A DNA stretch of 64,000 bases from an uncultured Gammaproteobacteria bacterium (GCA_964641255.1 CAZXMM010000001.1:537984-601983), one strand, 5' to 3'; numbered from the stretch's first letter, positions 1-62,395 are shown. Numbers and translations are program-made. Notes: a model not told the origin generated them from the sequence alone.

Positions 1-895
1 GTGATGTCCCAATTTTCGGCCGTTTAACTACTAATACTATTAACCCAAGAAGTGAAAAGAGAAATAATGGCGGTGTTAAGTAACTGCTTAACCACCTACT
101 ACTAAGCTCCATGTTAGGAGTAAAAAGTGCTCCAAAAGCGGGAGAAGCCAGTTTGGCCCCCGGAGTATAGTCCAAAGATTTTCTAATGTATTCAAAATAT
201 CCCGTCGAAACGATGTTAATGTTGGCTACGATCTGACAAGTTAAAACGGCGCACAATAACAAAAAAACAGTACCCCTTGTTAATAAAGGTCGTGTTTGCA
301 CCAAAAATACTAGTGGGGTAATGCCTAAATATAAAATGGCCGGGGATTTACTCAGAAAGGCAAATCCTAAAAAAAGTCCCCACAAGAGTGCGTCCCTTAG
401 TTGCCTTGTCCGAGCCGTCCTACAGGCTAGGTAAGCACCCATTGTCATCATGGCAGCTAGTTGGCTGTCATAAAGAAGCATCCGGTCATGAAATAGGAGA
501 AATGGAGTGAGAATAGCTATTAAGGCTGCTAAGAGTGCCACCCTCTTTGACTTAAACCATAAATAAGTAAGTCGGTAGGTGGCAATTATAGTTATTGCTC
601 CAAAAAATACTGAGGGTAGCCTACCTGCCAAAAGGTAAAGGTGTTCTGGTAAGATCTTGAGAAAAAAAGCCACCATCCAGATGAGGGGAAAAGCCTTACC
701 TGAAGTGAAACTAATAAACAAATGACTATTGGAAACCGCAATTCGTTTTGCCCACATCAGATAGTTAGCTTCATCAAAAAAGATGGGTAGGAGATCGAGA
801 TTAATTAGGCGTGTTACAAGGTAAAGACATGCTAAGATGACACTAATGAAAATAAATAGTTTATCCCTGTTATTTTTTAGTCTCTTAACCCTCAT
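1..895 (-). CDS. GT-C membrane glycosyltransferase, ArnT/PMT (GT39)-like. Its 3' end lies beyond the window start.
   Basis: The minus-strand frame is open from an ATG at about 895 down to position 1. Translation begins MRVKRLKNNRDKLFIFISVILACLYLVTRLINLDLLPIFFDEANYLMWAKRIA, the typical GT-C N-terminus with a D-E-x-x-Y loop motif after the first TM helix. It is followed by multiple hydrophobic helices. The ORF track omits it because its stop is outside the window. Confidence 0.5.
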   Translation of the reverse strand, partial: MRVKRLKNNRDKLFIFISVILACLYLVTRLINLDLLPIFFDEANYLMWAKRIAVSNSHLFISFTSGKAFPLIWMVAFFLKILPEHLYLLAGRLPSVFFGAITIIATYRLTYLWFKSKRVALLAALIAILTPFLLFHDRMLLYDSQLAAMMTMGAYLACRTARTRQLRDALLWGLFLGFAFLSKSPAILYLGITPLVFLVQTRPLLTRGTVFLLLCAVLTCQIVANINIVSTGYFEYIRKSLDYTPGAKLASPAFGALFTPNMELSSRWLSSYLTPPLFLFSLLGLIVLVVKRPKIGTS

Positions 896-2438
896 TGTTA
901 CCTTCCCTTTGGCTCTACATTTGAATACTCTTATTCTTGATCGTTATGACGGATTGTTAATTACTTGGATTATCAATTGGAATGTTCATAGTTTTAGTTT
1001 GGGACTTCCAGGGATTCTTAATTATTTTAACGCCAATATCTTCTTTCCTTATCATAACACGCTTGCTTTCTCTGATTACCATTTCTTAAACGGCCTAATT
1101 GCCCTGCCCTTCGTCTTTATTACTGGTGAACCGCTCGTAGGCTACAATATTAACTATCTTCTAGGATTTAGTCTTACTGCTTGGGCAATGTTTCTTCTCA
1201 TAAGATCCCTCACGCGAGATACTAGGTGTGCGCTCCTTTGTGGCACACTGTTTTCCTTCTCTATGATCCACTTAAGCTACATGACCCATTTGCAGCTGTT
1301 TGATTTTTACCCGGTAATTTTTGCTACCCACTTCTTATTACAACGTCGCTTCCTTCTTTTTCTTTGTACGTTTATCCTCGCTGTCTTGACTATGCCCCTC
1401 AACATTTTCTTTCTACTCGCCGTGGTAACTAGCTACTTTCTTACCATAAAAAGGGATGATAAAAGGCTTTTACTTTCTGCTGTCGTAGCTTGGGCAGTGA
1501 GTGGACTACTATTACTTCCTTATGTTTTTGTTTCTCACGAGTTTAATTATGTTCGCCCAATCCAAGAAGTCATCCACTTTTCTCTTAAATATCCAGACTT
1601 GGTTCGCATTAACGAAAGTAGTCGCCTTGTCAGTTTTTTAGGATCACAAGACTCAGGTACCCCCGCATTTTTTGGAGTCATATTTCTCCTTCTATTGTTA
1701 ATTCTTTTCTGGCAACGCCTAAGAAATTTTTCCTTGATTACTCCTAGCCCACAACTTAACTTTGCTTTTCTCCTCGGTGCTCTGTCTTTTATTCTCTCTT
1801 TTGGCCCGGCTTTCCACGTGGTTACCCATACAATTCGGGCTGGGTTTCTGCCCTTTATTCCCATGCCGTATCTTATTCTTTACTATCTCTTGCCTGGATT
1901 TTCTGGCTTTCGGACTCCATCTCGCTGGATACTTCTTAGTGCCTTCGCCCTAGTAATTGCTATTGGCATTCATTTTAAAAGAAAGATTTCCTCAGTAAGT
2001 CTCAGCTTCCTCATTGCTCTTATTCTTTTAGAGATTAATTTGCCCTTTTCCTACATTTTGGTACCGACTGTCAAAGACTTTCCACCAGAACAAGCGTGGT
2101 TGAAGGCTAATTCTAGTGGCCAAGCCATTATTCAATTCCCCATTTACAATTGGGCTGATTTTGACGGAGTTGGCGAGGAGACACTTAGGATGTACTATTC
2201 AACAATTCATTGGCAGCCAATGTTTAATGGCTACTCCGGATTTTTTCCTGAAGCGTGGCAAAACAAAGTGGGCTGGTTGAGAAAAGAGTTTCCCTCGACT
2301 AAAACTTTACAGTTTCTTAAAGATAAACAGATAAAATTAATTTTGGTTCCAGAAGGTTGGAAGGCTAGAATGCTACCCTTTAACCAAGTAGAATTGATAG
2401 AGGAATTTCCCAACACTTTAATTTATAAGCTGCAATGA
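837..2438 (+). CDS. Polytopic membrane protein of 533 aa, about 12 predicted helices plus a C-terminal soluble domain. Putative GT-C-like glycosyltransferase.
   Basis: Long hydrophobic ORF, divergent from the GT39-like gene. Its 5' end overlaps that gene by about 59 nt. Its C-terminal domain of about 150 aa is hydrophilic. Placement in a glycosylation cluster supports the call. Confidence 0.4.
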   Translation: MTLMKINSLSLLFFSLLTLIVTFPLALHLNTLILDRYDGLLITWIINWNVHSFSLGLPGILNYFNANIFFPYHNTLAFSDYHFLNGLIALPFVFITGEPLVGYNINYLLGFSLTAWAMFLLIRSLTRDTRCALLCGTLFSFSMIHLSYMTHLQLFDFYPVIFATHFLLQRRFLLFLCTFILAVLTMPLNIFFLLAVVTSYFLTIKRDDKRLLLSAVVAWAVSGLLLLPYVFVSHEFNYVRPIQEVIHFSLKYPDLVRINESSRLVSFLGSQDSGTPAFFGVIFLLLLLILFWQRLRNFSLITPSPQLNFAFLLGALSFILSFGPAFHVVTHTIRAGFLPFIPMPYLILYYLLPGFSGFRTPSRWILLSAFALVIAIGIHFKRKISSVSLSFLIALILLEINLPFSYILVPTVKDFPPEQAWLKANSSGQAIIQFPIYNWADFDGVGEETLRMYYSTIHWQPMFNGYSGFFPEAWQNKVGWLRKEFPSTKTLQFLKDKQIKLILVPEGWKARMLPFNQVELIEEFPNTLIYKLQ

Positions 2439-3187
2439 TTTCTATCTGTATTCTTACTCATAACAACGCAAGAACACTAGAAAATTGCCTAAACTCCGTT
2501 TCTTGGGGGGATGAAATAGTTGTGGTGGACGATAATTCTACAGATGGTAGCGTGGCTTTAGTAAAAAAGATTATCCCTAAGGCCCGTATATTTACAAGAT
2601 CACTAGAAGGAAACTTCGCGGCTCAAAGAAATTTTGCTCTAGAGAAAGCAACGGGGGACTGGGTGCTTTTTGTTGATTCAGATGAAGTAGTAACTTTTAG
2701 ACTGCGAGTGGAAATTGAGTCGGCGATTAAAGCACAAAAGACCAATGGCTTTTTGCTAAGCCGCCACGATATATTTTTTGCCAAGAGATTGCATTTTGGG
2801 GAGACAGGGCAGATTCGTCTTTTGCGTTTGGGGAGAAAAGGCAAAGGAAAGTGGAAACGCGAGGTACACGAAAAATGGGAGATTGAAGGAAGGATTATGG
2901 CAATATCTGCCCCTCTTGAACATTATCCCCATCCTACTATTAAAGAATTTGTTCATGATCTTAATTTTTACACCTCAATTGATGCCGCTTATATGTACTT
3001 TAAGGATGGTATTCGTTTCAGCTATTTCCGTGTTGTAGCTAATCCTCTTGGGAAGTTCTTACACAACTTCTTTTTAAAGTTGGGATTTCTCGATGGGAGA
3101 GCTGGATTTATTATAGCTGTTATGATGAGCTTACACTCTTTGCTAGTAAGAGTAAAACTCTATGAGTACAAAACTAAAGCCGACTAA
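2435..3187 (+). CDS. Family 2 glycosyltransferase
   Basis: ILTHNNARTLENCLNSV...VVDDNSTDGS...FVDSDE matches the GT2 nucleotide-sugar binding fold with DxD. There is a 4-nt overlap with the upstream gene. Confidence 0.75.
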   Translation: MISICILTHNNARTLENCLNSVSWGDEIVVVDDNSTDGSVALVKKIIPKARIFTRSLEGNFAAQRNFALEKATGDWVLFVDSDEVVTFRLRVEIESAIKAQKTNGFLLSRHDIFFAKRLHFGETGQIRLLRLGRKGKGKWKREVHEKWEIEGRIMAISAPLEHYPHPTIKEFVHDLNFYTSIDAAYMYFKDGIRFSYFRVVANPLGKFLHNFFLKLGFLDGRAGFIIAVMMSLHSLLVRVKLYEYKTKAD

Positions 3188-4373
3188 GGCCCACTTACCC
3201 CTTATGAAAATTATCATCGGCTTACTGCTATTGCTATTTTCCTTGGGCCAACTAGGACGGCTGAATATTTTTGGTTCGGAGTTAGTTATTCACCTCAATG
3301 ATGTGGCCGTTGGTTTATTTGTGCTTGGCACATTCATTTGGAAGCGGGCGACCCTAATTTCTGTGGTAAAGAGGGACCCCCTGTCACTTCCACTCGTCCT
3401 ATGGATTGGAGCAATGAGTTTATCACTTATTATCAACAGTATGCGCCTTTCCCTCTCTGAGCTCGTGATTTCGTCACTGTACGCCGTGCGCTTTGTTGCC
3501 TATACTGGAGTTTACTTTGCTGTTAAGCTGACACTGACTAAAGACATTGAATCCTTCTGGGGCAAAGGGCTAGTCTTAGCTACCGTAGCAGTAGCGGGAG
3601 TAGGAGTTTTGCAATACGTCTTTATTCCCGACGTCTCCTTTCTGCAAGCCACTTCCTGGGACGATCACTACTACCGGCTAATTTCTACATTTTTTGACCC
3701 CGGCTTTACCGGAGCAATCTTGGCTCTGGGGTTATTGGTGGCCTTTTTAGGCCGAAAACACAAATCCGACTGGGGAGTAATTACTCTTATCTATCTTGCC
3801 CTGGCGCTGACCTATTCTCGGGCCTCGTTTCTTCTCTACATGGCCGGATTTACGATCATTGCGCTTTGGCAGCGGTCGACAAAGCTTTTTATTGGAGCGG
3901 CTCTGCTTCTTGTGATCACCATTGCTCTGCTGCCTAATAATATACAAAGCGAGGGGACGCAACTTAACCGCGAAAATAGTGTGTGGTCAAGAATTAATAA
4001 TTGGCAGCAAAGCATTACTATATGGACCAAGGCCCCTCTCTTTGGTCACGGGTTTAATACCTACCGATATGTACAAAGGGATCTTGGGTACCTTAGGCCC
4101 GAGCTCATTAATGAAAGTCACGCAGCAGCGGGGGCTGACTCCTCCCTACTATTAGTATTAGCAACTACGGGAGCCGTCGGGTTAGGCGCCTACCTTTATT
4201 TGCTTTTTACAATGGCCAGACTGGGAAGATATAACAGTCTTTTTTTAGCGAGCTTTGCTGGGGTAGTGGTGCACAGTTTTTTTAATAATACACTTTTCTA
4301 TGCGTGGATTATGGAGTGGCTATGGATACTGTTGGCTCTCGTCCCACTTAGAGAACCAAAAAAAGTCTCTTAA
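3162..4373 (+). CDS. O-antigen ligase (Wzy_C) family membrane protein
   Basis: Polytopic membrane protein with the YSRASFLLYMAGF motif typical of the O-antigen ligase / Wzy_C domain. Confidence 0.65.
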   Translation: MSTKLKPTKAHLPLMKIIIGLLLLLFSLGQLGRLNIFGSELVIHLNDVAVGLFVLGTFIWKRATLISVVKRDPLSLPLVLWIGAMSLSLIINSMRLSLSELVISSLYAVRFVAYTGVYFAVKLTLTKDIESFWGKGLVLATVAVAGVGVLQYVFIPDVSFLQATSWDDHYYRLISTFFDPGFTGAILALGLLVAFLGRKHKSDWGVITLIYLALALTYSRASFLLYMAGFTIIALWQRSTKLFIGAALLLVITIALLPNNIQSEGTQLNRENSVWSRINNWQQSITIWTKAPLFGHGFNTYRYVQRDLGYLRPELINESHAAAGADSSLLLVLATTGAVGLGAYLYLLFTMARLGRYNSLFLASFAGVVVHSFFNNTLFYAWIMEWLWILLALVPLREPKKVS

Positions 4374-5101
4374 GGTTCGTATTTTATCGTCACTTCTTTT
4401 ACTGTTTCATTTCCTGCTTCATCCCGAGCCGTGATTTTAATTTTGTTCTCGCCATTATTCATCTGGAAAATATAATTGAAGTTTCCCGTTCCTGAAACGA
4501 TTGCCAAGTGTTCATTAACAATCACGGTGTTATCTGGATCGGTGCTGCCACTAATTTGTAGTGGGTTTTCCCTCACTGTATCTCCCTCTTTGGGGTTAGT
4601 AAGATCAAGCTTGGGAGCTCCGGTTAGGAGTCTGACAGAGTAATTGTCTGAGGCTGGACTTTTGCCACCACTTTTGCTGATGGCTACCGCTGAAAAGGTA
4701 TTGGTATTTTTTTCTAAATCCACTATCATCTCAAATTTCCCCATTTCGTCAGTTGTGGCGGTGCCAAGTAGGCGGTCGTTCTGATATATTTCTACTTCGG
4801 TCTCACTGTCTGAACGACCGGAGAGAGTAATACTTGCTGACTTAGTAGCCGAGAAGTTTTCAATAAATTGTGGTTGACTGGGAATAATCATGGTGGTGTC
4901 CTCAGCCCTGCTTGCCCCACCGTGCCTTACCCCACTGATCAGCCCAGTAAGACCAAAGACCGCCTGGGTGCCGAAGGTAACGAGCAGCAGGATGGTAACA
5001 ATAGAGCCCGCCAATAGTAGGTAAGTATTGCGTTTGGCTTTTTGTGCCTGGCGACTGCGTAAACGGGAGCCGTAATTCTTTTCCACACCCAATATTAGCA
5101 T
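4370..5101 (-). CDS. Membrane-anchored hypothetical protein with a beta-rich (Ig-like) ectodomain
   Basis: Basic N-terminus followed by one TM helix (LLLAGSIVTILLLVTFG), then a Thr/Ser-rich beta-strand-like sequence. No catalytic motif found. Confidence 0.35.
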   Translation of the reverse strand: MLILGVEKNYGSRLRSRQAQKAKRNTYLLLAGSIVTILLLVTFGTQAVFGLTGLISGVRHGGASRAEDTTMIIPSQPQFIENFSATKSASITLSGRSDSETEVEIYQNDRLLGTATTDEMGKFEMIVDLEKNTNTFSAVAISKSGGKSPASDNYSVRLLTGAPKLDLTNPKEGDTVRENPLQISGSTDPDNTVIVNEHLAIVSGTGNFNYIFQMNNGENKIKITARDEAGNETVKEVTIKYEP

Positions 5102-5136: not shown

Positions 5137-5208
5137 GCCGAAGTGGCTCAGTGGTAGAGCAGCTCTTTCGTAAAGAGCGGGTCGAGAGTTCGATTCTCTC
5201 CTTCGGCT
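5137..5208 (+). tRNA. tRNA-Thr (anticodon CGT)
   Basis: Manual cloverleaf: acceptor GCCGAAG/CTTCGGC, D arm GCTC-AGTGGTA-GAGC, anticodon arm GCTCT-TTCGTAA-AGAGC, T arm GAGAG-TTCGATT-CTCTC. CCA is not encoded. Confidence 0.8.
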
Positions 5209-5224: not shown

Positions 5225-6661
5225 GTGAAAGTAAAAGACATTTATCAAAAGTTTGGCATTCCTCCGAACCTGCAAGACCACATGGTTCAGGTTTCCGGTA
5301 TTACAACCTTCATTGAAGGTCATTGGAAAAAAGCAGCGCCCACTGTGGATTGGGATTTGGTGAAGAAAGTGGCTCTTCTCCATGATTTGGGCAATGTCGT
5401 AAAATTTGATTTGGATCGTCACGTTGATTTTCTTAAGGGAGAAGAGGCAAACATTGATTACTGGCGAACGATGCAAAAAAAGATTATCGATACTTATGGT
5501 GTTGATGATCATGAGGTAACAAAAAAGATGCTTCAGGAGATCGTCATGAGTCAAGAAGCTATTGATGTAATTCAAAGTAAGGGTCTTAGTAATGCCATGG
5601 CAACAATGGATTCAGACAACTGGTCATTAAAGATTCTGTTTTACGCTGACATGCGAACATTGCCTAGTGGCATTGGTTCCCTCTCCGAACGCATGGACGA
5701 TATTGCAAAGCGTTTGCCTAAATACGGTCTGCGACCCGATTTCCAAGAACTTGTTGATGCGTGTCATGAAATCGAACGCCAAATTCAGGCAAATATTGAT
5801 GTTTCAATCTTGGACATAACCGATCGTTCTGTGGAATCGAACCCCCACGCCTTTTTGGAAATTGATGTGAGTAAGAGATTAATGAATGTTCTCTTTGATT
5901 CCATAGGGAGAACTTACGGTCTGACGCGAAAAGCCGACCCTCGAATAGTAGCAAGGCTTATTGAGCTTTTGGGCCTTCCAAAAGGATCAATAATTGCAGA
6001 TGTTGGTGCCGGAACGGGGAATTATAGCGCGGCGTTAACTGAGGCAGGCTACCGAGTTATTGCTGTAGAACCATCAATTGTTATGCGCAGCCATGGCAAA
6101 CAGCGAGTCGGGCTGGAGTGGAGAGATGGCTGGGCCGAAAATCTTCCAGTTGAGGATTCGTCGGTGGATGGAGTGATTTGCACAGCTGCCATTCATCACT
6201 TTGATGATATCCCACAAGCCTTATCTGAGATGGCCCGAGTGGTTAAAGTAAATGGTTCTATTGTGATTTTCAATGCTAAGCACGCAGACCGAAAAAACGT
6301 TTGGATTGATGATTATTTTAATCCCGAAACAACGAATACCTATCCTAGTTCAGTGGAAATAGCTGATAAACTTGACGATTTCCTTCATTCAAAAGCGGAC
6401 GTGGAACCATTCATGATTCCCCATGACATTGATGACATGTTTTTTATTTCCGGGTGGCGTCGTCCGTGGTTGTATCTTGATAAGACATTCTGTGACAACA
6501 TCTCTCCTCTTGCTAAAGCGCCAGAAGCAAAATTGACCGCCTTTCAGAATAAATTGCGGAAGGATTTACTGTCTGGTAAATGGCTAGAGAAATACGGAGA
6601 AATCCTCAAAAAAGACAGCATTGATTCAGGCTACTTTTTTGTTTATGGTAAAAAGTCCTAA
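5225..6661 (+). CDS. Fusion protein: N-terminal HD-domain phosphohydrolase and C-terminal class I SAM-dependent methyltransferase
   Basis: The N-terminus has H...ALLHDLGNV (an HD motif). The C-terminal half has IADVGAGTGNYS (methyltransferase motif I) followed by DGVICTAAIHHF. Confidence 0.55.
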   Translation: MKVKDIYQKFGIPPNLQDHMVQVSGITTFIEGHWKKAAPTVDWDLVKKVALLHDLGNVVKFDLDRHVDFLKGEEANIDYWRTMQKKIIDTYGVDDHEVTKKMLQEIVMSQEAIDVIQSKGLSNAMATMDSDNWSLKILFYADMRTLPSGIGSLSERMDDIAKRLPKYGLRPDFQELVDACHEIERQIQANIDVSILDITDRSVESNPHAFLEIDVSKRLMNVLFDSIGRTYGLTRKADPRIVARLIELLGLPKGSIIADVGAGTGNYSAALTEAGYRVIAVEPSIVMRSHGKQRVGLEWRDGWAENLPVEDSSVDGVICTAAIHHFDDIPQALSEMARVVKVNGSIVIFNAKHADRKNVWIDDYFNPETTNTYPSSVEIADKLDDFLHSKADVEPFMIPHDIDDMFFISGWRRPWLYLDKTFCDNISPLAKAPEAKLTAFQNKLRKDLLSGKWLEKYGEILKKDSIDSGYFFVYGKKS

Positions 6662-6685
6662 TGAAGCCGTTCCGGAAGAGGTTGA

Positions 6686-7153
6686 CTAATTTCCACGTCT
6701 TAGCATTATCGTTCCTTGTCCCTGCTCCATAGGACTAAATTCAATCGTCTGGCTATCATCGAATTGGGGAGGCATAGTTTGCGCTTCAGCTGCTCCTTGG
6801 TATTCATTACCTGGATAGGTCGGAGCCATTCCTTGACCAAAGCCGCCACCCATATACATCATTTGCATTTGCTCTAATCGCCGCACGCGTCGTTCTAAAT
6901 CATTATGTCTTTTTTGCATTTTGCAATGCCTCATTTGCAGTAGGAGAGCTTTCTTACGGTTAACCATCATCTCTTCCTGCACTCTTGTCGAAGGGGCCAC
7001 AGAGGTGGTTTGCCTTTGTCCAAGCAGGGGAGCGAGACGATTTTTGATTTCCACTTTGTTGTTTTGATAGGCAATGCCGAGGATAAAAGCGGCGACTGCT
7101 ACCATGACGAGAAGGATTCCTCCGGTGGCGTATTGCCGTTGTTCGTAAGTCAT
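6686..7153 (-). CDS. Hypothetical membrane-anchored protein with low-complexity Gln/Met/Gly-rich regions
   Basis: Single N-terminal TM (ILLVMVAVAAFILGIAY). No recognisable motifs. Confidence 0.3.
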   Translation of the reverse strand: MTYEQRQYATGGILLVMVAVAAFILGIAYQNNKVEIKNRLAPLLGQRQTTSVAPSTRVQEEMMVNRKKALLLQMRHCKMQKRHNDLERRVRRLEQMQMMYMGGGFGQGMAPTYPGNEYQGAAEAQTMPPQFDDSQTIEFSPMEQGQGTIMLRRGN

Positions 7154-7289
7154 AGTTATTATTATACACCCTGTGCAAAGTCCCAGAATTCCCTTACTAT
7201 AACTGTTCGTCAGTAGTGACTATTAAGCATTAACAAAGTGGTTTTTCTCTTGCTATACTAGCTCTGATAAAAGTTAGGAGGTGAGTTAA

Positions 7290-7778
7290 TTGGAAGAAAC
7301 CAAAAAATCCTATCTTAAATATGTTGTCCCAGTCAGTATTATTGCAGTCGTTGTGGTAGCCGCGGTGGTTGTTTATACCACCCAAATGGCTGGTGACAAG
7401 GCAGCGATGAAGCAAACCGCTCCGGTAGAGGTAGTTGAGGTGGCACCAAATGATGCCATGATGCAACAAGAAAACGCGAGTGGTTATAAGGATGGTACTT
7501 ACACTGTCACCGGCAAGTATGTTTCTCCTGGTGGGCCCAGAGAAGTGGGTGTAACCGTTACGCTTAAAGACGGAATCGTTACAGATTCTACTTTTGAAGG
7601 GCGGGCCACTGATCCCGCTTCAATGCGGTTTCAAAAAGAATTTGCTGAGGGCTACAAAGCTATGGTGGTGGGAAAACCCATCGAAGATCTAGCTTTGACT
7701 AAAGTGTCCGGATCGTCACTAACCCCAAAAGGATTTAATGACGCTCTTGAACAAATCAGGGCTAAGGCTCAGTCATGA
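7290..7778 (+). CDS. Exported, membrane-anchored FMN-binding (FMN_bind) domain protein, NqrC/RnfG-like
   Basis: N-terminal TM (VVPVSIIAVVVVAAVVVY), then DGTYTVTGKYVSPGGPREVGVTVTLKDGIVTDSTFEGRATDP. This resembles the FMN_bind fold and a degenerate Dxx(s/t)GA(T/S) flavinylation motif. An RBS aggagg precedes a TTG start. Confidence 0.55.
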   Translation: MEETKKSYLKYVVPVSIIAVVVVAAVVVYTTQMAGDKAAMKQTAPVEVVEVAPNDAMMQQENASGYKDGTYTVTGKYVSPGGPREVGVTVTLKDGIVTDSTFEGRATDPASMRFQKEFAEGYKAMVVGKPIEDLALTKVSGSSLTPKGFNDALEQIRAKAQS

Positions 7779-8644
7779 TCACGTTCGATGCTATTGGTAC
7801 GAGCTGGTCAATTAATGTCTTTGAAACACTAAGGCAGACTGATAGTGGGTTACTAAAAGACGCTATTTCTCAACGAATTAGCGTCTTTGACAAAGCCTAC
7901 TCTCGGTTTAGGAGCGATTCTTGGGTCAGTGAAATTGCAAAAAAGCAGGGTACCTACACCATTCCTCCTGACGGCGAGCCAATGTTCTCCCTTTACGAAA
8001 AGCTCTACAAGTTAACTGGTGGAGCTATGACTCCTCTGATTGGTAGGGCAATGGAGGAAGCTGGCTACGATGCTAACTATTCCCTGGTTCCTAAAGAGAT
8101 TCACACTGTTCCTACTTGGGAGGAAGTGGTGGCATTTTCTTTCCCAAAATTAGAACTAAAAGCGCCGGTCCTTTTTGACTTTGGAGCCATGGGCAAGGGG
8201 TATTTGGTGGATATTGTGGGAGGAGTGATGGAAGATCGGGGTGTGACTAACTATTGCATCGATGCCGGGGGAGATATTTTGTATAAAACAAGTAGTAAAA
8301 AACAGCTAGAAGTCGGACTTGAGCATCCAGGAGACAAATCGCAAGTTATTGGGGTGGCAACTATCCTTAATCAGTCCATCTGTGGTTCGGCAGGAAATAG
8401 ACGAAAGTGGGCAAATTTTCATCACGTAATAGATCCTCACACGTTAACCTCTCCCAAAGAGATTTTGGCCACCTGGGTAGTAGCCAAGACCGCTATCTTA
8501 GCTGACGCTCTTACTACCGCACTTTTCTTTGCTAAACCGGAAATATTAATACCAGAGTTCGAATTTGACTACTTAGTTATTGATGAAGACTATCAAGTTG
8601 ACAAGTCAGAAAACTTTCCTGCCACCCTGTATTATAAAGAGTAA
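7775..8644 (+). CDS. apbE: FAD:protein FMN transferase (ApbE family)
   Basis: IDAGGDILY...GSAGNRRKW..HHVIDPHTLTSP matches the ApbE signature H-H-x-I-D-P-x-T-G/S. There is a 4-nt overlap with the upstream FMN-binding gene. Confidence 0.75.
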   Translation: MITFDAIGTSWSINVFETLRQTDSGLLKDAISQRISVFDKAYSRFRSDSWVSEIAKKQGTYTIPPDGEPMFSLYEKLYKLTGGAMTPLIGRAMEEAGYDANYSLVPKEIHTVPTWEEVVAFSFPKLELKAPVLFDFGAMGKGYLVDIVGGVMEDRGVTNYCIDAGGDILYKTSSKKQLEVGLEHPGDKSQVIGVATILNQSICGSAGNRRKWANFHHVIDPHTLTSPKEILATWVVAKTAILADALTTALFFAKPEILIPEFEFDYLVIDEDYQVDKSENFPATLYYKE

Positions 8645-8646
8645 CT

Positions 8647-10140
8647 ATGTTTCTCGCTGACCGCCTTTTAAACAAGGTAACGATGTACTTCCTAGTTTTA
8701 AACGGACTGGGAATACTCTCAATTATTGCCATTCTTTTGGGCTTTATTGGGCTGCTTCCTTATTCGGGTATTCAATTTTCTATTCTTCTGGCTGTTATCT
8801 ATGGGTCCTGCCTGGCCTTTCACTACACCTTAGCCAAACTCTTTAAAGCTACTACCAATAAAGAATCCTACCGCATTACAGCTCTCATTCTTTTTTTCCT
8901 TCTGTCACCGATCTTTAACTGGACAGACCTAGTAGTTACTATTGTGGCTTGTTTTATCGGGATGGCGTCAAGGTATGCTTTTGCCATTGAAAAAAAACAT
9001 ATCTTCAACCCCGCAGCGATAGCGATTTTCCTCTTAGGGCTGTTTGGTTATGGCAATGCCATTTGGTGGGTAGGAAGCACTGTTCTTTTGCCTTTTGTCC
9101 TTACTTTGGGACTGGCAGTAGTAAGAAAGATTCGAAAGTTTCGGCTGTTCTTGCCTTTCTTGGGAGCTTCCCTCATCACTATTTCTGTCTACGGGGTCGA
9201 TCCAGTCCAAGCCTTAACCTCTTGGCCCCTTATTTTCCTTGGGACCATCATGCTTACCGAGCCTCTTACTACCCCGCCCACAAAGTACAAAGCGATGATC
9301 TATGGAGCACTCGTTGGCATCTTAACCGGAGCTCAGTTTAGTGTTGGACCACTGCATGCCTCCCCCGAATTTGCTCTAGTGGTGGGAAACATTTTCTCCT
9401 ATATTGTAAGTCCTAAGAAAAAACTCTTTAGTGAACTTAAGGAGAGGATTCAACTAGCACCAACGATCTTTGAATTCGTCTTTGCCAAGGACAAAGACTT
9501 TTCTTTTACACCGGGACAATACCTGGAATGGACCATTGCTCACAACCACCCTGACAGTAGGGGCAACAGGCGCTACTTTACGATTGCCTCTTCTCCCACC
9601 GAAAAAGATTTAAGACTGGGAGTCAAGATAGTTGAAGGTAGTTTTAGTAGTGCCAAAAAGACGCTGCTTGGAATGGAACTCGGGACTAAAATAGTTGCCT
9701 CCCAGCTAGCCGGTGATTTTATTCTTCCTAAAGATGACAAGCAAAAACTGGCCTTCATTGCGGGGGGAATTGGGGTGACTCCCTACAGAAGTATTATTAA
9801 ATATCTTCTGGATAAAAAAGAAAAGAGAGATATTATTTTTTTCTATACCTGTGGTAGTGAAAGCGAATTTGTTTACAGGGATATCTTTGCTCAAGCTGTC
9901 AGTGAACTGGGAATAAAAGTAATCTATGTAATTACGGAGGAAGATAAAGCACCCGAAAACTGGAGCGGGGAAAGGGGCAGAATCAGCAAAGAGATACTTG
10001 AGAAACACATTTCTGATCTGAAAGAAAGAAAATTTTATCTTTCTGGACCCAATGCTATGGTGGAGTCGTACGACCAGTTAATAAGAAGCATGGGGGTAGG
10101 CAGAGGTAAAATTGTTAAAGACTACTTCCCGGGGTTTTAA
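8647..10140 (+). CDS. Membrane-bound flavoprotein oxidoreductase: N-terminal polytopic membrane domain fused to an FNR-type FAD/NAD(P)-binding reductase domain
   Basis: About 250 aa with 6-7 TM helices. Then RRYFTIASSP (FAD-binding RxYS motif) and GGIGVTP (NAD(P)-binding GGxGxxP), with a C-terminal YLSGP. Confidence 0.6.
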   Translation: MFLADRLLNKVTMYFLVLNGLGILSIIAILLGFIGLLPYSGIQFSILLAVIYGSCLAFHYTLAKLFKATTNKESYRITALILFFLLSPIFNWTDLVVTIVACFIGMASRYAFAIEKKHIFNPAAIAIFLLGLFGYGNAIWWVGSTVLLPFVLTLGLAVVRKIRKFRLFLPFLGASLITISVYGVDPVQALTSWPLIFLGTIMLTEPLTTPPTKYKAMIYGALVGILTGAQFSVGPLHASPEFALVVGNIFSYIVSPKKKLFSELKERIQLAPTIFEFVFAKDKDFSFTPGQYLEWTIAHNHPDSRGNRRYFTIASSPTEKDLRLGVKIVEGSFSSAKKTLLGMELGTKIVASQLAGDFILPKDDKQKLAFIAGGIGVTPYRSIIKYLLDKKEKRDIIFFYTCGSESEFVYRDIFAQAVSELGIKVIYVITEEDKAPENWSGERGRISKEILEKHISDLKERKFYLSGPNAMVESYDQLIRSMGVGRGKIVKDYFPGF

Positions 10141-11189
10141 GAAGCTAATCCCAAAAATTCGCCCATCCGCATAGTCTCTGCTTCTAGCTCTTTTTCAAAC
10201 TGTTTGCTCTTTGGTCGGAACTTAACAAAGCCCAAATCCACATTTAAGGCGTTACTAACTACTTTAACATTGGCCCAGCCAATAATATCTTCTTGCCACA
10301 GAAGGGGCATAGCATAGTAGCCGCGAATTCTTTTGGGGGCAGGAGTGTAGGCCTCAAATTGATATAGCCAACCCCACAGATGCTCAAAGCGGTACCGATC
10401 ACGCACTACTGGATCAAAGGGAGTTAAGAATTTAACCGTAGAAGGTACTTCTTCCTCTTTTAATTCCCCTGTTGGGTAGTAGTAAACTAAACCATCAATA
10501 GTTTCTTTAGTTAATTCGCCGCTTGCTACCAGTTGTTTAAGGATGGGCCTCGTATCACCATGCTGGCGATGAATTCGATGAAACGACTGCGCCAAAGTCT
10601 TAGCTGTAACCGGAGCCATAATGCGAACGGTAAGCATGACGAGGCTTTTTAGTCGCTCGGAAGCGGGTAGGGTGGGTTCGGAAATTATGGTTGGTTCATA
10701 AATCCGAAAGCCATTCTCCCTTTTGGCCACCCTGAGGAGTCCATAGTAGTGCAGTCTTTCCAGAGACATCTTACTGGCTCGTGAGTACCCACTCCACCAA
10801 TTAATTTCCCGCCCTTTGCCAAAGTGCTGCTCTAAGTTCTTTGGGTGAATTGCTCCCAACTCACAAACCTTGTCATAGACACTCTTATCAGCTTTCGTAA
10901 GATCGATTTCATTACGAGGATGTAGCAGTAACCAGCTCTCACGAGTAATATAGCCATGAGCAAAGAGGAAGTCTTCCTCAAGACGTAAGTCACAATACGC
11001 CCGGTCGATATCTCCCACATGATAATCTTTTACTCGGTGACGCAGCGTTAGGTCTTGAGCCCTGGCGGGAGAGCGAATGGGATCAATTTGCACAAACTGC
11101 ATTCGCTCTATTGCTTCCTTTAGGGTAGTGGGCGCAAAAAGTGAGTTAGTAAGAGTCAGGTTTTTAAGTTGTTGTTTGGATAGTTTCAT
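10137..11189 (-). CDS. Winged-helix DNA-binding protein, YcaQ/AlkZ-like (putative DNA crosslink-repair glycosylase family)
   Basis: 350 aa. The N-terminal MKLSKQQLKNLTLTNSLF...IERMQFVQIDPI resembles the YcaQ family. Confidence 0.45.
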   Translation of the reverse strand: MKLSKQQLKNLTLTNSLFAPTTLKEAIERMQFVQIDPIRSPARAQDLTLRHRVKDYHVGDIDRAYCDLRLEEDFLFAHGYITRESWLLLHPRNEIDLTKADKSVYDKVCELGAIHPKNLEQHFGKGREINWWSGYSRASKMSLERLHYYGLLRVAKRENGFRIYEPTIISEPTLPASERLKSLVMLTVRIMAPVTAKTLAQSFHRIHRQHGDTRPILKQLVASGELTKETIDGLVYYYPTGELKEEEVPSTVKFLTPFDPVVRDRYRFEHLWGWLYQFEAYTPAPKRIRGYYAMPLLWQEDIIGWANVKVVSNALNVDLGFVKFRPKSKQFEKELEAETMRMGEFLGLAS

Positions 11190-60375: not shown

Positions 60376-61319
60376 TTTCCACTATAATGGGAGCTCTTAT
60401 GACTAAGCTGGGGTTACTAGTTATAGTTCTTTGCGTTTTGTCTCTAGGTTTAGTGGCGGTCGCCATGATCAGGGCCTTTATCTTGCCGCTACTTCCTACC
60501 TCTGCCTCCCCAGTGAGGACTGTTCCCACGGCCGTCAGTGTGGTTCCAACTAAAAACGTTGCCAAGACTGGGCTAGCAGAACTAGTGACTAAGGCTCTTG
60601 CGGGGAGTAAAGGCACTTACGCGGTAGTCGTGATTAATTTACGAACAGGAGAAAGCTACCGCCTCAACGAGGAGCGGGTCTTCGAATCTGCCAGCCTCTA
60701 TAAACTGTGGGTCATGGCCACGGCCTTTAAGCAAATTGAGGCGGGCAGTCTAAAGAGAGACGAGGTCTTAACTGATTCCATCGCTCAGCTGAACCGCGAC
60801 TTTGATATTGCCTCGGAGTCGGCTGAACTAACTAGTGGGGGAATTTCTCTAACGACCAAGACGGCGCTGGAACAAATGATTACCATTTCTCATAACTACG
60901 CTGCCATGCTGCTCTCAAAGCGGGTAAAGCTGTCTCAGGTCAGCGCGTTTTTAGCTGCCCATAATTACACCCATTCGGCTCTTGGGACCCCGCCCAAGAC
61001 TACCGCCGCAGATATGGCTCAGTTTTTAGCTGATTTGTACCACGGCAAATTAGGTAGTGAAAGTAGCACGCACGATATGCTGGCGCTCCTGAAGCGCCAA
61101 CAGTTAAACAATAAATTGCCACTCTATTTGCCCCCTGAAGTACAAATGGCTCATAAGACTGGGGAACTAGACCGAGTGACCCACGACGCGGGAATTGTCT
61201 TTTCTAACCAGGGAGACTTCATTATTGTCGTTTTGTCAGAAAGTGACTCTCCTGTAGGAGCCGAAGAGCGGATAGCTCAAATCAGCAAGGTAGTCTACGA
61301 CTACTTTTTAGTTAAATAG
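60363..61319 (+). CDS. Class A beta-lactamase-like serine hydrolase (PBP-like)
   Basis: N-terminal anchor. Motifs SLYK (SxxK), SHN (SxN) and HKTG (KTG). Confidence 0.7.
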   Translation: MQDAISTIMGALMTKLGLLVIVLCVLSLGLVAVAMIRAFILPLLPTSASPVRTVPTAVSVVPTKNVAKTGLAELVTKALAGSKGTYAVVVINLRTGESYRLNEERVFESASLYKLWVMATAFKQIEAGSLKRDEVLTDSIAQLNRDFDIASESAELTSGGISLTTKTALEQMITISHNYAAMLLSKRVKLSQVSAFLAAHNYTHSALGTPPKTTAADMAQFLADLYHGKLGSESSTHDMLALLKRQQLNNKLPLYLPPEVQMAHKTGELDRVTHDAGIVFSNQGDFIIVVLSESDSPVGAEERIAQISKVVYDYFLVK

Positions 61320-62395
61320 GTGATGAGGACTACAAGGGCGTACAACAGACCCAGCAATCCCGCATTAATGAGGATGTTTTGCCACAGTGGGGTGTAACTA
61401 GGCAAGATCAGATTGATGGGAAAGATCAACAGAGCGTGTAGTCCGTAGGCAAGCAGCGAATTGGCGCCGAATGTTTTAAAAAAGCCTTTTGACCAAGCGT
61501 TAATTTTTTGCTCGTGCCTTCGTACCCAGTAGTAGAGGGCACTAAACCAGAGCAGGGCTAAAAGAGCCCGCCCCGGCCCCAGTTTCCCTTTGTCAAAAAC
61601 ACTCACTAGTAGCTCTTTGTGCCAATAGCTTAGGTCTTTTAAAGCGCTAAGATTAGCCTGGCTTAAAAAATCAAGGTGCCAGTTAAGATCAAGAAGGGCC
61701 TTTACTCCAAAGACCATAACTACACTGAGGAAAAGTGTTAGGAGTGAAAGAGTGTACAGCCAGGTAACGTACGTAGGGCGCAGTTTTTTTTCTAGCTGCA
61801 AGAGATAATAGCCACCCGTAATACCAAAAGTAAAAAGCAGTTGCCAAGAGAGATAAAAATTGTCTTGTCTTAGTAGCCAGACACCACTTGTGGCGAGAAT
61901 TACTAGCCACCAGCGGCGTTTGGCGAGGAGCCAAAGAGCTAGGGGGGCAAAGAGCATAAAGATAGCATAGTAAGGCAGGAAGTCGGCCCAGCCGTAGGTA
62001 TAGCGCAAACTGAGAGTGTCTATAAGTAGCCGCAGGGGATCACTAAGAGAAAGCCAGTTTTGTTTGATTTTTAAGGAGGGAGTAAGATTGGCCCAGATTG
62101 TAAAAAAAAGTGTTAGAGCCACTGCCCAAAAATAAAGAGTGGCGGCCCGTTTCCACAGTTTGGTGGCCACTGCCCAAAAATGAGTTTTTACTGCCTCCCG
62201 GTAAATAAAGCCTACGAGTACTCCGGAAATCAGAAAAAACCCTTCAGCCGCCGACACCCAGAGCTTGCCCTGGCCACTAAAAATATCGAAAAAACCCGGA
62301 AAGCGGTAAATATGATCGACTAAAACGACACACAAAAAATAGCCGCGCAATAGATCCAAAGCTAGTATTCGCTGCGATTGTGGTTTAGTCTCCAT
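61301..62395 (-). CDS. Acyltransferase 3 (OpgC-like) family membrane protein
   Basis: ILALDLLRGYFLCVVLVDH at the N-terminus. About 10 TM segments. Confidence 0.6.
   Translation of the reverse strand: METKPQSQRILALDLLRGYFLCVVLVDHIYRFPGFFDIFSGQGKLWVSAAEGFFLISGVLVGFIYREAVKTHFWAVATKLWKRAATLYFWAVALTLFFTIWANLTPSLKIKQNWLSLSDPLRLLIDTLSLRYTYGWADFLPYYAIFMLFAPLALWLLAKRRWWLVILATSGVWLLRQDNFYLSWQLLFTFGITGGYYLLQLEKKLRPTYVTWLYTLSLLTLFLSVVMVFGVKALLDLNWHLDFLSQANLSALKDLSYWHKELLVSVFDKGKLGPGRALLALLWFSALYYWVRRHEQKINAWSKGFFKTFGANSLLAYGLHALLIFPINLILPSYTPLWQNILINAGLLGLLYALVVLITYLTKK

Follow-up and report, generated by a model that had tools for sequence, protein, structure and literature searches.

Introduction

The closest described relatives of the locus reported here belong to the NQR/RNF-like system, which was defined by Méheust et al. 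2021 in eLife (PMC8238504) and modelled by Huang et al. 2024 (PMC10979944). Both papers noted the system in CPR bacteria. It was defined by a single protein with an N-terminal PF03116 domain and a C-terminal PF00175 domain, encoded no more than five genes from ApbE or FMN_bind genes, and its RnfD-like subunit has no conserved equivalent of the flavinylated NqrB/RnfD Thr. In an AlphaFold-multimer model of the Ktedonobacter complex, the flavinylation site of the acceptor lies where the RnfD-like subunit binds its non-covalent flavin (PMC10979944). Earlier work reported 127 NQR/RNF-like clusters. We found no experimental characterisation of any member in the literature.

The parent proteins RnfD/NqrB hold a riboflavin near the cytoplasmic side of the membrane and an FMN near the periplasmic side, ~8 Å apart (PMC12174285). 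Covalent FMN is attached by ApbE, which recognises a seven-residue motif, canonically D-x-x-[ST]-G-A-[ST], at the C-terminal end of the FMN_bind domain; in mutagenesis, the Asp of the motif was dispensable, as Asp-to-Ala changes had minor effects, and Ser was accepted as the nucleophile (PMC12052999). The requirement of the enzyme is this motif, and no folded domain. In Listeria, the ApbE-type enzyme FmnB leaves the cell as a lipoprotein, and an ECF transporter exports FAD (PMC9973259). The ApbE of K. pneumoniae has no signal peptide and flavinylates a soluble fumarate reductase (PMC12052999).

Results

Operon layout and genomic context

Three co-directional genes on the plus strand were found in the window, which is the whole stretch of 64,000 nucleotides analysed. 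Gene 1 (g1; 7290-7778, 162 aa, TTG start) encodes a membrane-anchored, NqrC/RnfG-like FMN_bind protein and predicted flavinylation acceptor, g2 (7775-8644, 289 aa) encodes an ApbE FAD:protein FMN transferase without a signal peptide, and g3 (8647-10140, 497 aa) encodes an RnfD/NqrB-like membrane domain fused to an FNR-type reductase. The first two genes overlap by 4 nt (ATGA, 7775-7778), and 2 nt (CT, 8645-8646) separate the last two, exactly as the initial annotation had described. The TTG start of g1 is backed by its homologues because they share the MEE.. N-terminus, and it is preceded at a distance of 8 nt by a Shine-Dalgarno sequence, AGGAGG (7276..7281, plus strand). A promoter-like site on the same strand (TTAACA, 18 nt, TG-TATACT; 7230..7259) matches 10 of 12 positions with an extended -10, lies 31 nt upstream of the g1 start and is the top-scoring site within 6600-10400. 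It is only suggestive, since the total of such sites in the region was not above that in shuffled sequence.

The operon is flanked by genes for a methyltransferase/HD protein, an AlkZ-like glycosylase and an SNase-like nuclease. No Rnf or Nqr subunit besides the trio was detected among the 27 other window proteins scanned. Likewise, the scanned ORFs of the window contained no respiratory gene outside the operon, as had been claimed, neither the operon nor these ORFs contained Ndh2 or Eet genes, and no FAD exporter was linked to the module. The host is CPR-like, a possibility raised initially, judging from its closest named relatives, Levybacteria and Daviesbacteria.

Assignment to the NQR/RNF-like system, distribution and subtypes

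By its domain content and gene arrangement, the locus is a member of the published NQR/RNF-like system. PF03116 and PF00175 occur at the N- and C-terminal ends of the single protein g3, the ApbE gene lies 2 nt upstream of this fusion, and the gene with the FMN_bind fold lies next upstream. The RnfD flavinylation site is lost, as in the published system, and the taxonomic range agrees with the reported one (CPR, Actinobacteria and Ktedonobacteria). The architecture is not new and shows no essential difference from the published one. The window locus represents a subtype in which ApbE is longer (~290 aa) and the acceptor motif is non-canonical. The modelled Ktedonobacter type differs from it in having a ~247-aa ApbE and a D-x-x-S-G-A-T acceptor.

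The gene order acceptor, ApbE, RnfD::FNR was kept in ~70 of 80 related loci from five phyla (CPR, Chloroflexota, Actinobacteria, Alphaproteobacteria and Spirochaetota). Because the same order recurs in ~70 independent loci of five phyla, the operon is not a chance arrangement, and these sequence comparisons establish that the three genes are inherited together in these phyla. At least 420 loci were confirmed by tblastn, and clustering resulted in 652 clusters (50% identity, E <= 1e-10); by these sequence counts, the module is commoner than the 127 clusters reported previously. The recurrent neighbours of the module were only two-component regulators and ABC/HlyD exporters, neither of which occurs in the window, and no conserved terminal reductase or acceptor gene was detected among the neighbourhoods of the related loci.

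The related loci fall into two subtypes. Type A, which includes the window, combines the ~290-aa ApbE with an x-G-S-S acceptor (in its fuller form, x-[KR]-[VI]-[SA]-G-S-S), and type B combines the ~247-aa ApbE with the canonical D-x-x-S-G-A-T acceptor. The ApbE subtype and the acceptor motif co-vary, as G-A-[ST] was present in 47 of the 49 type B loci and G-S-S in 15 of the 20 type A loci. These two ApbE/acceptor subtypes appear not to have been reported earlier.

A membrane domain fused to a reductase

The initial annotation had described g3 as a fusion of a membrane domain and an FNR-type reductase, and our searches bear this out. The N-terminal domain (residues 1-257; 8647..9417, plus strand) contains ten helical segments (AF2 pLDDT 88.6), and residues 141-253 match the Pfam family NQR2_RnfD_RnfE (PF03116) at 2e-10 with 41 bits against a cutoff of 27.7. 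A profile built from 28 membrane domains retrieved A. vinelandii RnfD (8ahx_D) at 5.8e-7, with only the C-terminal half aligned, whereas the domain submitted as a single sequence had no match in the PDB. The membrane domain is accordingly RnfD/NqrB-like, one of the two families (the other being ferric reductases) that the initial annotation had named for testing, and does not resemble an unrelated transporter, which had been raised as the contrary outcome. Foldseek of full-length g3 was uninformative on this domain because the reductase domain dominated the matches.

The C-terminal domain (9418..10140, plus strand) was identified as an FNR-type FAD/NAD(P)H reductase by Pfam and by PDB sequence and fold matches. 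Residues 370-475 match NAD_binding_1 (PF00175) at 2.6e-18 with 67 bits, and the two motifs previously noted are present, RRYFTIASSP at residues 308-317 (9568-9597) and GGIGVTP at residues 373-379 (9763-9783). Its top PDB hits, by sequence and by fold, are the FAD/NAD domains of NqrF, the reductase domains of flavohaemoglobins, and Fre. The K/R-rich loops of g3 alternate in a manner consistent with an N-in/C-in topology, with the reductase on the K/R-rich side. Sequence and structure model thus identify g3 as an RnfD/NqrB-type membrane domain joined to a predicted cytoplasmic, NqrF-like FAD/NAD(P)H reductase.

The flavinylation loop of RnfD appears to be lost in g3. The motif [STA]G[AS][ST] is absent from the protein and was not conserved in sets of 40 or 75 relatives, and a shortened loop follows the NPA helix, with only ~40 residues between this helix and RKIRK. 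The loss was judged by motif absence and loop length, not by residue-by-residue alignment, because the profile aligned only the C-terminal half of the membrane domain. We also considered g3 as a second, cytosolic ApbE substrate; this was rejected, as the sequences showed neither a flavinylation-like motif nor a residue fixed differently between the subtypes.

A predicted membrane-anchored acceptor with a variant flavinylation motif

The transmembrane anchor of g1 comprises residues 11-29, YVVPVSIIAVVVVAAVVVY (7320..7376, plus strand), with a Kyte-Doolittle 19-residue mean of 2.74, and AF2 predicts a helix at residues 9-33. The remainder was initially annotated as an FMN-binding acceptor domain. 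Its score against Pfam FMN_bind (PF04205) is 14.1 bits, below the cutoff of 22, but the fold search resulted in a clear match to the FMN_bind fold, and 24 of 36 g1 relatives matched the FMN_bind model at E <= 0.1, the best at 7e-6.

The flavinylation site, however, had been placed in the stretch DGTYTVTGKY..., with which the domain begins. The putative site corresponds to the variant motif T137-K-V-S-G-S-S143 (7698..7718, plus strand), 19 residues from the C-terminus of g1, at the position that the canonical motif occupies in FMN_bind. Compared with the canonical motif, the Gly and the terminal Ser are kept, whereas Asp(-6) is replaced by Thr and Ala(-1) by Ser. G141, S142 and S143 are invariant in the 36 relatives, and Ser143 (7716-7718) is predicted from the motif to be the acceptor of the FMN phosphoester. 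Sequence comparison and modelling together establish g1 as a predicted single-pass membrane protein with a C-terminal FMN_bind domain carrying an invariant G-S-S flavinylation-type motif.

With regard to topology, the K+R count among the acceptor relatives was higher in the N-terminal than in the C-terminal flank of the anchor in 57 proteins and lower in 20, a bias that favours an N-in, C-out orientation of g1-type acceptors. Lipoboxes were found in acceptor relatives of five loci. Acceptors of the same subtype as g1 carry the clear lipoprotein signals VVTGC and LAGC in Actinobacteria and MVGC in Peribacteria. Cleavable signal peptides were found in Spirochaetota; those of the spirochaetal and type B acceptors are classical and positively charged. 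In the CPR type A acceptors the positive-inside signal is weak because the net charge of the N-flank is near zero.

An ApbE without an export signal

The product of g2 matches Pfam ApbE (PF02424) at 1.5e-38 with 133 bits (cutoff 25.6) and contains HHVIDP at residues 216-221. Its residues Ser205, His217 and Asp244 align with S255, H271 and D299 of E. coli ApbE, which are equivalent to S241, H257 and D285 of V. cholerae, and this triad is conserved at 90% or more in both subtypes. The alignments establish g2 as an ApbE with an intact catalytic triad, in agreement with its initial description as a canonical member.

The expectation that this ApbE is exported did not hold. An in-frame stop lies three codons upstream of the g2 start, the alignment to E. 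coli ApbE pairs residue 7 of g2 with residue 42, and the 10-residue Kyte-Doolittle mean of g2 does not exceed 0.94, whereas the lipoprotein signal of E. coli, used as a control, reaches 2.84. A hydrophobic N-terminus was absent from g2, from all 71 cluster ApbEs and from all 120 of the closest database relatives. We therefore predict from these features that g2 is cytosolic and not exported. The initial annotation had regarded a cytoplasmic location of both the FMN domain and ApbE as fatal to its proposal; ApbE is indeed predicted to be cytoplasmic, but the FMN domain is predicted to lie outside. That all cluster ApbEs lack a signal peptide, although acceptor relatives carry lipoboxes or cleavable signals, appears to have gone unreported. 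Some ApbE relatives have short Lys/Ser-rich N-terminal extensions.

Comparison with other flavin-based systems

Compared with Na+-NQR/RNF, g3 unites an NqrB/RnfD homologue with a homologue of the NqrF FAD/NAD domain, and g1 is a homologue of NqrC/RnfG, with a single N-terminal helix, an FMN_bind domain and ApbE-dependent covalent FMN (predicted here). The canonical operon encodes six subunits, whereas three genes are present here. The window operon lacks the Fe-S subunits NqrD/E (RnfA/E), NqrA/RnfC, RnfB and the 2Fe-2S domain of the reductase, and the RnfD-like domain of g3 lacks a covalent FMN site of its own. Electron flow in Na+-NQR/RNF is semicircular, whereas one-way outward flow through the RnfD half-path is predicted for the window; no sign of ion pumping was seen in the operon.

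The initial annotation had also proposed a minimal analogue of the extracellular electron transfer (EET) of Listeria monocytogenes. As a functional analogy this is sound, since both systems would link cytosolic NADH to an ApbE-flavinylated FMN_bind protein at the surface, but homology does not extend to it. The membrane step of Listeria (Ndh2, demethylmenaquinone, EetA/B) is not homologous to that of the window, and no Ndh2, EetA/B or Dmk was seen in the operon or the ORFs scanned; PplA is a two-domain lipoprotein, unlike g1, and its model scores 20.4 bits here against a cutoff of 325. FmnB is exported, whereas the window ApbE has no export signal. In the latter respect g2 resembles the cytoplasmic ApbE of K. 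pneumoniae, which likewise has an intact catalytic core and no signal peptide. The known substrates of cytosolic ApbEs are FMN_bind domains that belong to soluble reductases of the cytosol, whereas the only candidate acceptor in the window is a membrane-anchored protein that is clearly exported in relatives.

Discussion

We consider the trio to be a two-subunit, Nqr/Rnf-like transmembrane electron conduit with a dedicated maturation enzyme, in which electrons would flow to an extracytoplasmic flavin. From sequence, structure models and analogy with described systems, we assign this reading a probability of about 0.62. We infer the cofactor content, electron donor, direction of flow and acceptor as follows. 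On the cytoplasmic side, NAD(P)H would reduce the FAD bound by the reductase domain of g3, and the electron would move on to a flavin held non-covalently at the RnfD/NqrB riboflavin site, which lies in the cytoplasmic half of the RnfD-like domain. It would then cross ~8 Å to the outer site, which holds covalent FMN in true RnfD/NqrB; in g3, where the loop is deleted, this site would be filled by the FMN that ApbE esterifies to Ser143 of g1. From the g1 FMN, the electron would leave to an extracytoplasmic acceptor. The initial annotation had drawn the same path, from NAD(P)H through FAD and the membrane domain to an outward covalent FMN, and it coincides with the literature proposal (PMC8238504, PMC10979944).

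CPR cells do not have respiratory chains. In a fermentative CPR cell, the conduit may serve as an outlet that oxidises NAD(P)H, or as a reductase for external Fe(III), flavin or another oxidant. The module is common in these bacteria, whose redox balancing is poorly understood, and it would be the simplest of the predicted routes that link cytosolic NAD(P)H with an extracytoplasmic flavin, consisting of two proteins with flavins only, free of haem, Fe-S clusters and quinone. Earlier surveys probably under-counted it in CPR, because the CPR-type acceptor is sub-threshold in Pfam and the cluster ApbE lacks a signal peptide.

The absence of signal peptides from all cluster ApbEs could also mean that the entire flavin relay is cytoplasmic, with g1 oriented N-out/C-in and the RnfD-like domain acting as an ion channel or pump or feeding a membrane-soluble acceptor. 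Cytosolic ApbEs with cytosolic substrates are known, such as that of K. pneumoniae, which acts on a fumarate reductase (PMC12052999), the positive-inside signal of CPR type A acceptors is weak, and RnfD/NqrB is related to Amt/urea channels with a candidate ion path (PMC12174285). We nevertheless regard this arrangement as quite improbable, given the lipoprotein signals of same-subtype acceptors in Actinobacteria and Peribacteria, the classical signal peptides of spirochaetal and type B acceptors, the N-in bias of the K+R counts (57 versus 20), the outer-face position of the acceptor in the published multimer model (PMC10979944) and the extracytoplasmic location of the RnfG/NqrC homologues (PMC12174285). 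It is less probable still that the cluster ApbE is not a flavinyl-transferase here but hydrolyses FAD as an Ftp-like pyrophosphatase or loads g3 with flavin, so that the flavin of g1 would be non-covalent or g1 would be structural or regulatory. ApbE/Ftp members can hydrolyse FAD, as described for T. pallidum Ftp (PMC4436053), and the g1 motif lacks the canonical Asp and Ala. The conserved Ser/His/Asp transferase triad, the invariant G-S-S of the acceptor family and the co-variation of ApbE subtype with acceptor motif argue for a transferase, and neither the replaced Asp nor the Ser nucleophile should be an obstacle in view of the mutagenesis data (PMC12052999).

Within the electron conduit that we prefer, ApbE is predicted to be cytosolic and the acceptor domain external, so maturation would need a putative special route. 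Most likely, the short g1 chain would receive its FMN on the cytoplasmic side and be translocated afterwards. If flavinylation does precede export, this would represent a novel means of providing the cell surface with a cofactor, and export of the cofactor in protein-bound form would make a FAD exporter unnecessary. The full proposal, in which a cytosolic ApbE acts before translocation, the cofactor leaves bound to protein, the module is the sole transmembrane electron outlet of CPR cells and the subtypes are co-evolved enzyme-substrate specificities, is advanced tentatively, as a speculative extension. Export of ApbE by an unrecognised route, such as piggy-back with a partner or a non-classical signal, with flavinylation of g1 outside and the electron path unchanged, seems unlikely to us. 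It would agree with every characterised extracytoplasmic acceptor, all of which are modified outside by an exported ApbE, and with Salmonella, where ApbE in the cytosol could not substitute for the periplasmic form (PMC12052999); some ApbE relatives also have the Lys/Ser-rich extensions noted above. However, a hydrophobic N-terminal segment was found in 0 of 71 cluster ApbEs and 0 of 120 closest database relatives, FAD would have to be exported as well although no exporter is linked to the module, and no acceptor-ApbE fusion was found among the related loci. Long ORFs in three of them (L070, L020 and L082) had resembled fusions that would carry ApbE outside, but they were rejected as ORF-calling artefacts of high-GC genomes. 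The Tat route for a pre-folded flavoprotein was likewise rejected as a general solution, as most acceptors, including g1, have no RR pair; one spirochaetal acceptor does contain an RR pair.

Operon layout and flanking genes

The operon was confirmed as real and the initial annotation as correct in outline, and the operon is an instance of a published predicted system. Its three open reading frames, which coincide exactly with those first placed, are g1, the FMN_bind-type acceptor gene (7290-7778, forward strand; 162 aa, TTG start), g2, encoding ApbE (7775-8644, forward strand; 289 aa), and g3, encoding an RnfD/NqrB-like membrane domain fused to an FNR-type reductase (8647-10140, forward strand; 497 aa). 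Read directly, g1 and g2 overlap by ATGA, and g2 and g3 are separated by a 2-nt spacer. A strong AGGAGG lies 8 nt 5' of the g1 TTG start, and a promoter-like TTAACA-18-TGcTATACT lies upstream of g1 (7230-7259, forward strand). The unit is a three-gene operon, since g3 ends 4 nt within a convergent AlkZ-like glycosylase gene.

Directly upstream, a divergent 155-aa ORF (6686-7153, reverse strand) matched no Pfam family; its product has a single hydrophobic segment and a tail rich in Gln and Met. Both identical Logan contigs carry this ORF as a called gene of 139 or 155 aa. A tRNA (5137-5208) immediately precedes a 478-aa gene (5225-6661, forward strand) fusing an N-terminal HD-like domain (weak match) to a class I SAM methyltransferase. 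The rest of the window is housekeeping (PolX, MurT, GatA/B, DnaE, BipA, UvrABC, enolase, and tRNAs). Envelope genes at 1-5101 and 61301-62395 (PMT-family glycosyltransferase, GT2, Wzy_C/O-antigen ligase-like, and OpgC-like acyltransferase), with a Big_6/Glucodextran_B surface protein annotated on the identical contig, fit a CPR surface-glycan locus.

Domain assignment of the three proteins

The g3 protein matched NQR2_RnfD_RnfE above the gathering score, as well as NAD_binding_1, and a profile built from 28 membrane domains matched A. vinelandii RnfD at 5.8e-7. By sequence and fold, its reductase half was closest to the NqrF FAD/NAD domain, flavohaemoglobin reductase domains, and Fre. The confident AF2 model (pLDDT 88.6) has ten helical segments, in agreement with RnfD/NqrB topology (PMC12174285), and alternating K/R-rich loops put the N-terminus and the reductase both on the cytoplasmic side. 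No flavinylation-type motif was found in the g3 sequence, where the NPA helix and the RKIRK loop are only about 40 residues apart; this concurs with the loss of conservation of the RnfD Thr in the NQR/RNF-like family (Huang et al. 2024, PMC10979944).

Residues 140-144 of g3, WWVGS (9064-9078), form the outward loop right after the NPA helix, the position of the flavinylated loop in true RnfD/NqrB. This loop carries no flavinylation motif; conservation is complete at W140 and W141 and about 90% at G143/S144, and these residues may line the pocket receiving the g1-bound FMN. Also conserved, in both subtypes of the module described below, are E73/S74 (8863-8868), S108/K109 (8968-8973), and H118..N121-P122 (8998-9012), which cluster where helices 3-5 reach the cytoplasmic side and are candidates for a riboflavin-equivalent site or a docking surface for the reductase domain.

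The g2 protein matched Pfam ApbE at 1.5e-38. Alignment with E. coli ApbE/Ftp and 68 ApbEs of related loci showed Ser205, His217, and Asp244 to be conserved and equivalent to the V. cholerae ApbE triad Ser241/His257/Asp285, whose catalytic roles are known (PMC12052999).

Against Pfam FMN_bind, g1 scored 14 bits, below the cutoff of 22. The model was matched by 24 of 36 g1 relatives, the soluble domain was predicted with pLDDT > 90, and these comparisons still place g1 in the FMN_bind fold. The family alignment contains an invariant G141-S142-S143 within K-[VI]-[SA]-G-S-S-L-T-P-K-G-F, at the position of D-x-x-[ST]-G-A-[ST] in FMN_bind proteins, and Ser143 is therefore the predicted flavin acceptor. 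The stretch first quoted as the flavinylation site is instead the start of the domain.

Relation to the NQR/RNF-like system

Méheust et al. 2021 (PMC8238504) defined an "NQR/RNF-like" system by a PF03116::PF00175 fusion within a flavinylation gene cluster, exactly the fusion found here. By this fusion and its context, the window operon belongs to a system already described but known from prediction only, for which our literature search found no experimental studies. The architecture and electron path first proposed agree with the published system and are thus not new, and the likeness to Listeria EET holds as a functional analogy only. In the AlphaFold-multimer model of the Ktedonobacter racemifer complex (Huang et al. 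2024, PMC10979944), the RnfD flavinylation site is gone, and the acceptor places its own at the site where the RnfD-like subunit binds flavin non-covalently. The interest lies in the system's simplicity, its CPR abundance, and the unexplained missing signal peptide on ApbE.

With the domain identities, g3 topology, conserved motif and catalytic residues, and conserved synteny established here, the following path is proposed. NAD(P)H would reduce the FAD of the g3 reductase, and a non-covalent flavin at the site equivalent to that of riboflavin would take the electron next. From there it would move to the FMN attached to g1 Ser143, which would occupy the FMN site left empty in the RnfD fold, and finally to an acceptor outside the cell. 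This flow would reverse the RNF/NQR half-path RnfG -> RnfD -> riboflavin, whose two flavins are about 8 Å apart (PMC12174285).

Two subtypes of the module

The module has two ApbE/acceptor subtypes, a point absent from both papers. In subtype A (15 of 20 loci fit), an ApbE of about 290 aa starting ..FEAIGT.. accompanies an x-[KR]-[VI]-[SA]-G-S-S acceptor; it occurs in this window, other CPR, and Actinobacteria. In subtype B (47 of 49), an ApbE of about 247 aa starting ..MGMPITVEI.. accompanies the canonical D-x-x-S-G-A-T, in Ktedonobacteria, other CPR, Alphaproteobacteria, and Spirochaetota. Against Pfam, type-B acceptors score above the threshold (39.5 bits), whereas type-A acceptors mostly fall below it. 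We infer ApbE-acceptor specificity from the pairing, which shared ancestry of the whole operon could also yield.

Predicted export of the acceptor and location of ApbE

Export had been predicted for both the FMN domain and ApbE; the prediction stands for the former, and ApbE is predicted to be cytoplasmic. An in-frame stop lies 3 codons before the g2 start. In alignment, residue 7 of the g2 protein falls opposite residue 42 of E. coli ApbE, whose lipoprotein signal MEISFTRVALLAAALFFVGC is obvious by the same hydrophobicity measure. None of the 71 cluster ApbEs has an export signal, a feature that neither Méheust et al. 2021 nor Huang et al. 2024 mentions. The 120 nearest relatives in the database likewise lack any hydrophobic segment before the fold, and 109 of them have fewer than 10 residues there. 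A minority of type-A ApbEs (P0397, P0468, P0486-P0488) carry a short Lys/Ser-rich N-terminal extension, e.g. ..SKSKxKxK..; it is hydrophilic and is not a signal peptide.

The acceptors of related loci, judged by their N-termini, are clearly exported: five loci have lipoboxes (VVTGC, LAGC, MVGC), Spirochaetota acceptors have cleavable A-x-A signal peptides, and type-B acceptors have classical MKK-hydrophobic N-termini. The K+R bias in the g1 family (57 cases N-in/C-out vs 20 opposite) favours N-in/C-out for the window g1. A relay facing the cytoplasm entirely would suit the signal-less ApbE but not these acceptors, and is improbable. The same electron path with ApbE reaching the outer face by cryptic export would suit the acceptors and leave the uniformly bare ApbE N-termini to be explained; we regard it as unlikely. 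A non-transferase role for the cluster ApbE sits poorly with the conserved triad and seems very unlikely. We favour, speculatively, flavinylation of g1 on the cytoplasmic side ahead of translocation, because ApbE requires only a 7-residue motif and acts on terminal tags, and cytosolic ApbEs exist (PMC12052999).

The 2021 survey, in which CPR were "strikingly underrepresented", accepted a cluster once a single one of its target genes encoded a signal peptide (PMC8238504), so a signal-less ApbE would go unflagged. This rule and the weak match of type-A acceptors to Pfam probably explain the low CPR count.

Related loci and their neighbourhoods

At least 420 loci were confirmed in a scan of species-representative genomes, and the best 80 were examined. 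The order acceptor, ApbE, RnfD::FNR was kept in about 70 of these, from many CPR lineages, Ktedonobacteria and other Chloroflexota, Mesorhizobium, Kaistia, Microbacteriaceae, and Spirochaetota. The membrane domain alone was found in 652 clusters (50% identity, E up to 1e-10), most about 500 aa long and thus fusions. No terminal reductase or acceptor gene travelled with the module among the examined loci. Two gene pairs were the only recurring neighbours. About 15-20 of the 80 loci have a sensor kinase (HisKA/HATPase) next to an OmpR-type regulator, and about 10-17 CPR loci have an ABC exporter and an HlyD-like adaptor; examples are at L078:7561-9305, L047:7505-9615, L027:8960-12179, and L032:470-3727. 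The window contains neither pair. Such neighbours may have a link to regulation, or to export of an acceptor or a flavin.

Among named relatives, those closest to g1, g2, and g3 belong to Levybacteria, Daviesbacteria, and other Patescibacteria. The MAGs of seven of the closest loci (L003, L005, L006, L010, L031, L060, and L078) are labelled uncultured Gammaproteobacteria, a label that may be unreliable; their module is nearest to that of Patescibacteria and their contigs look CPR-like.
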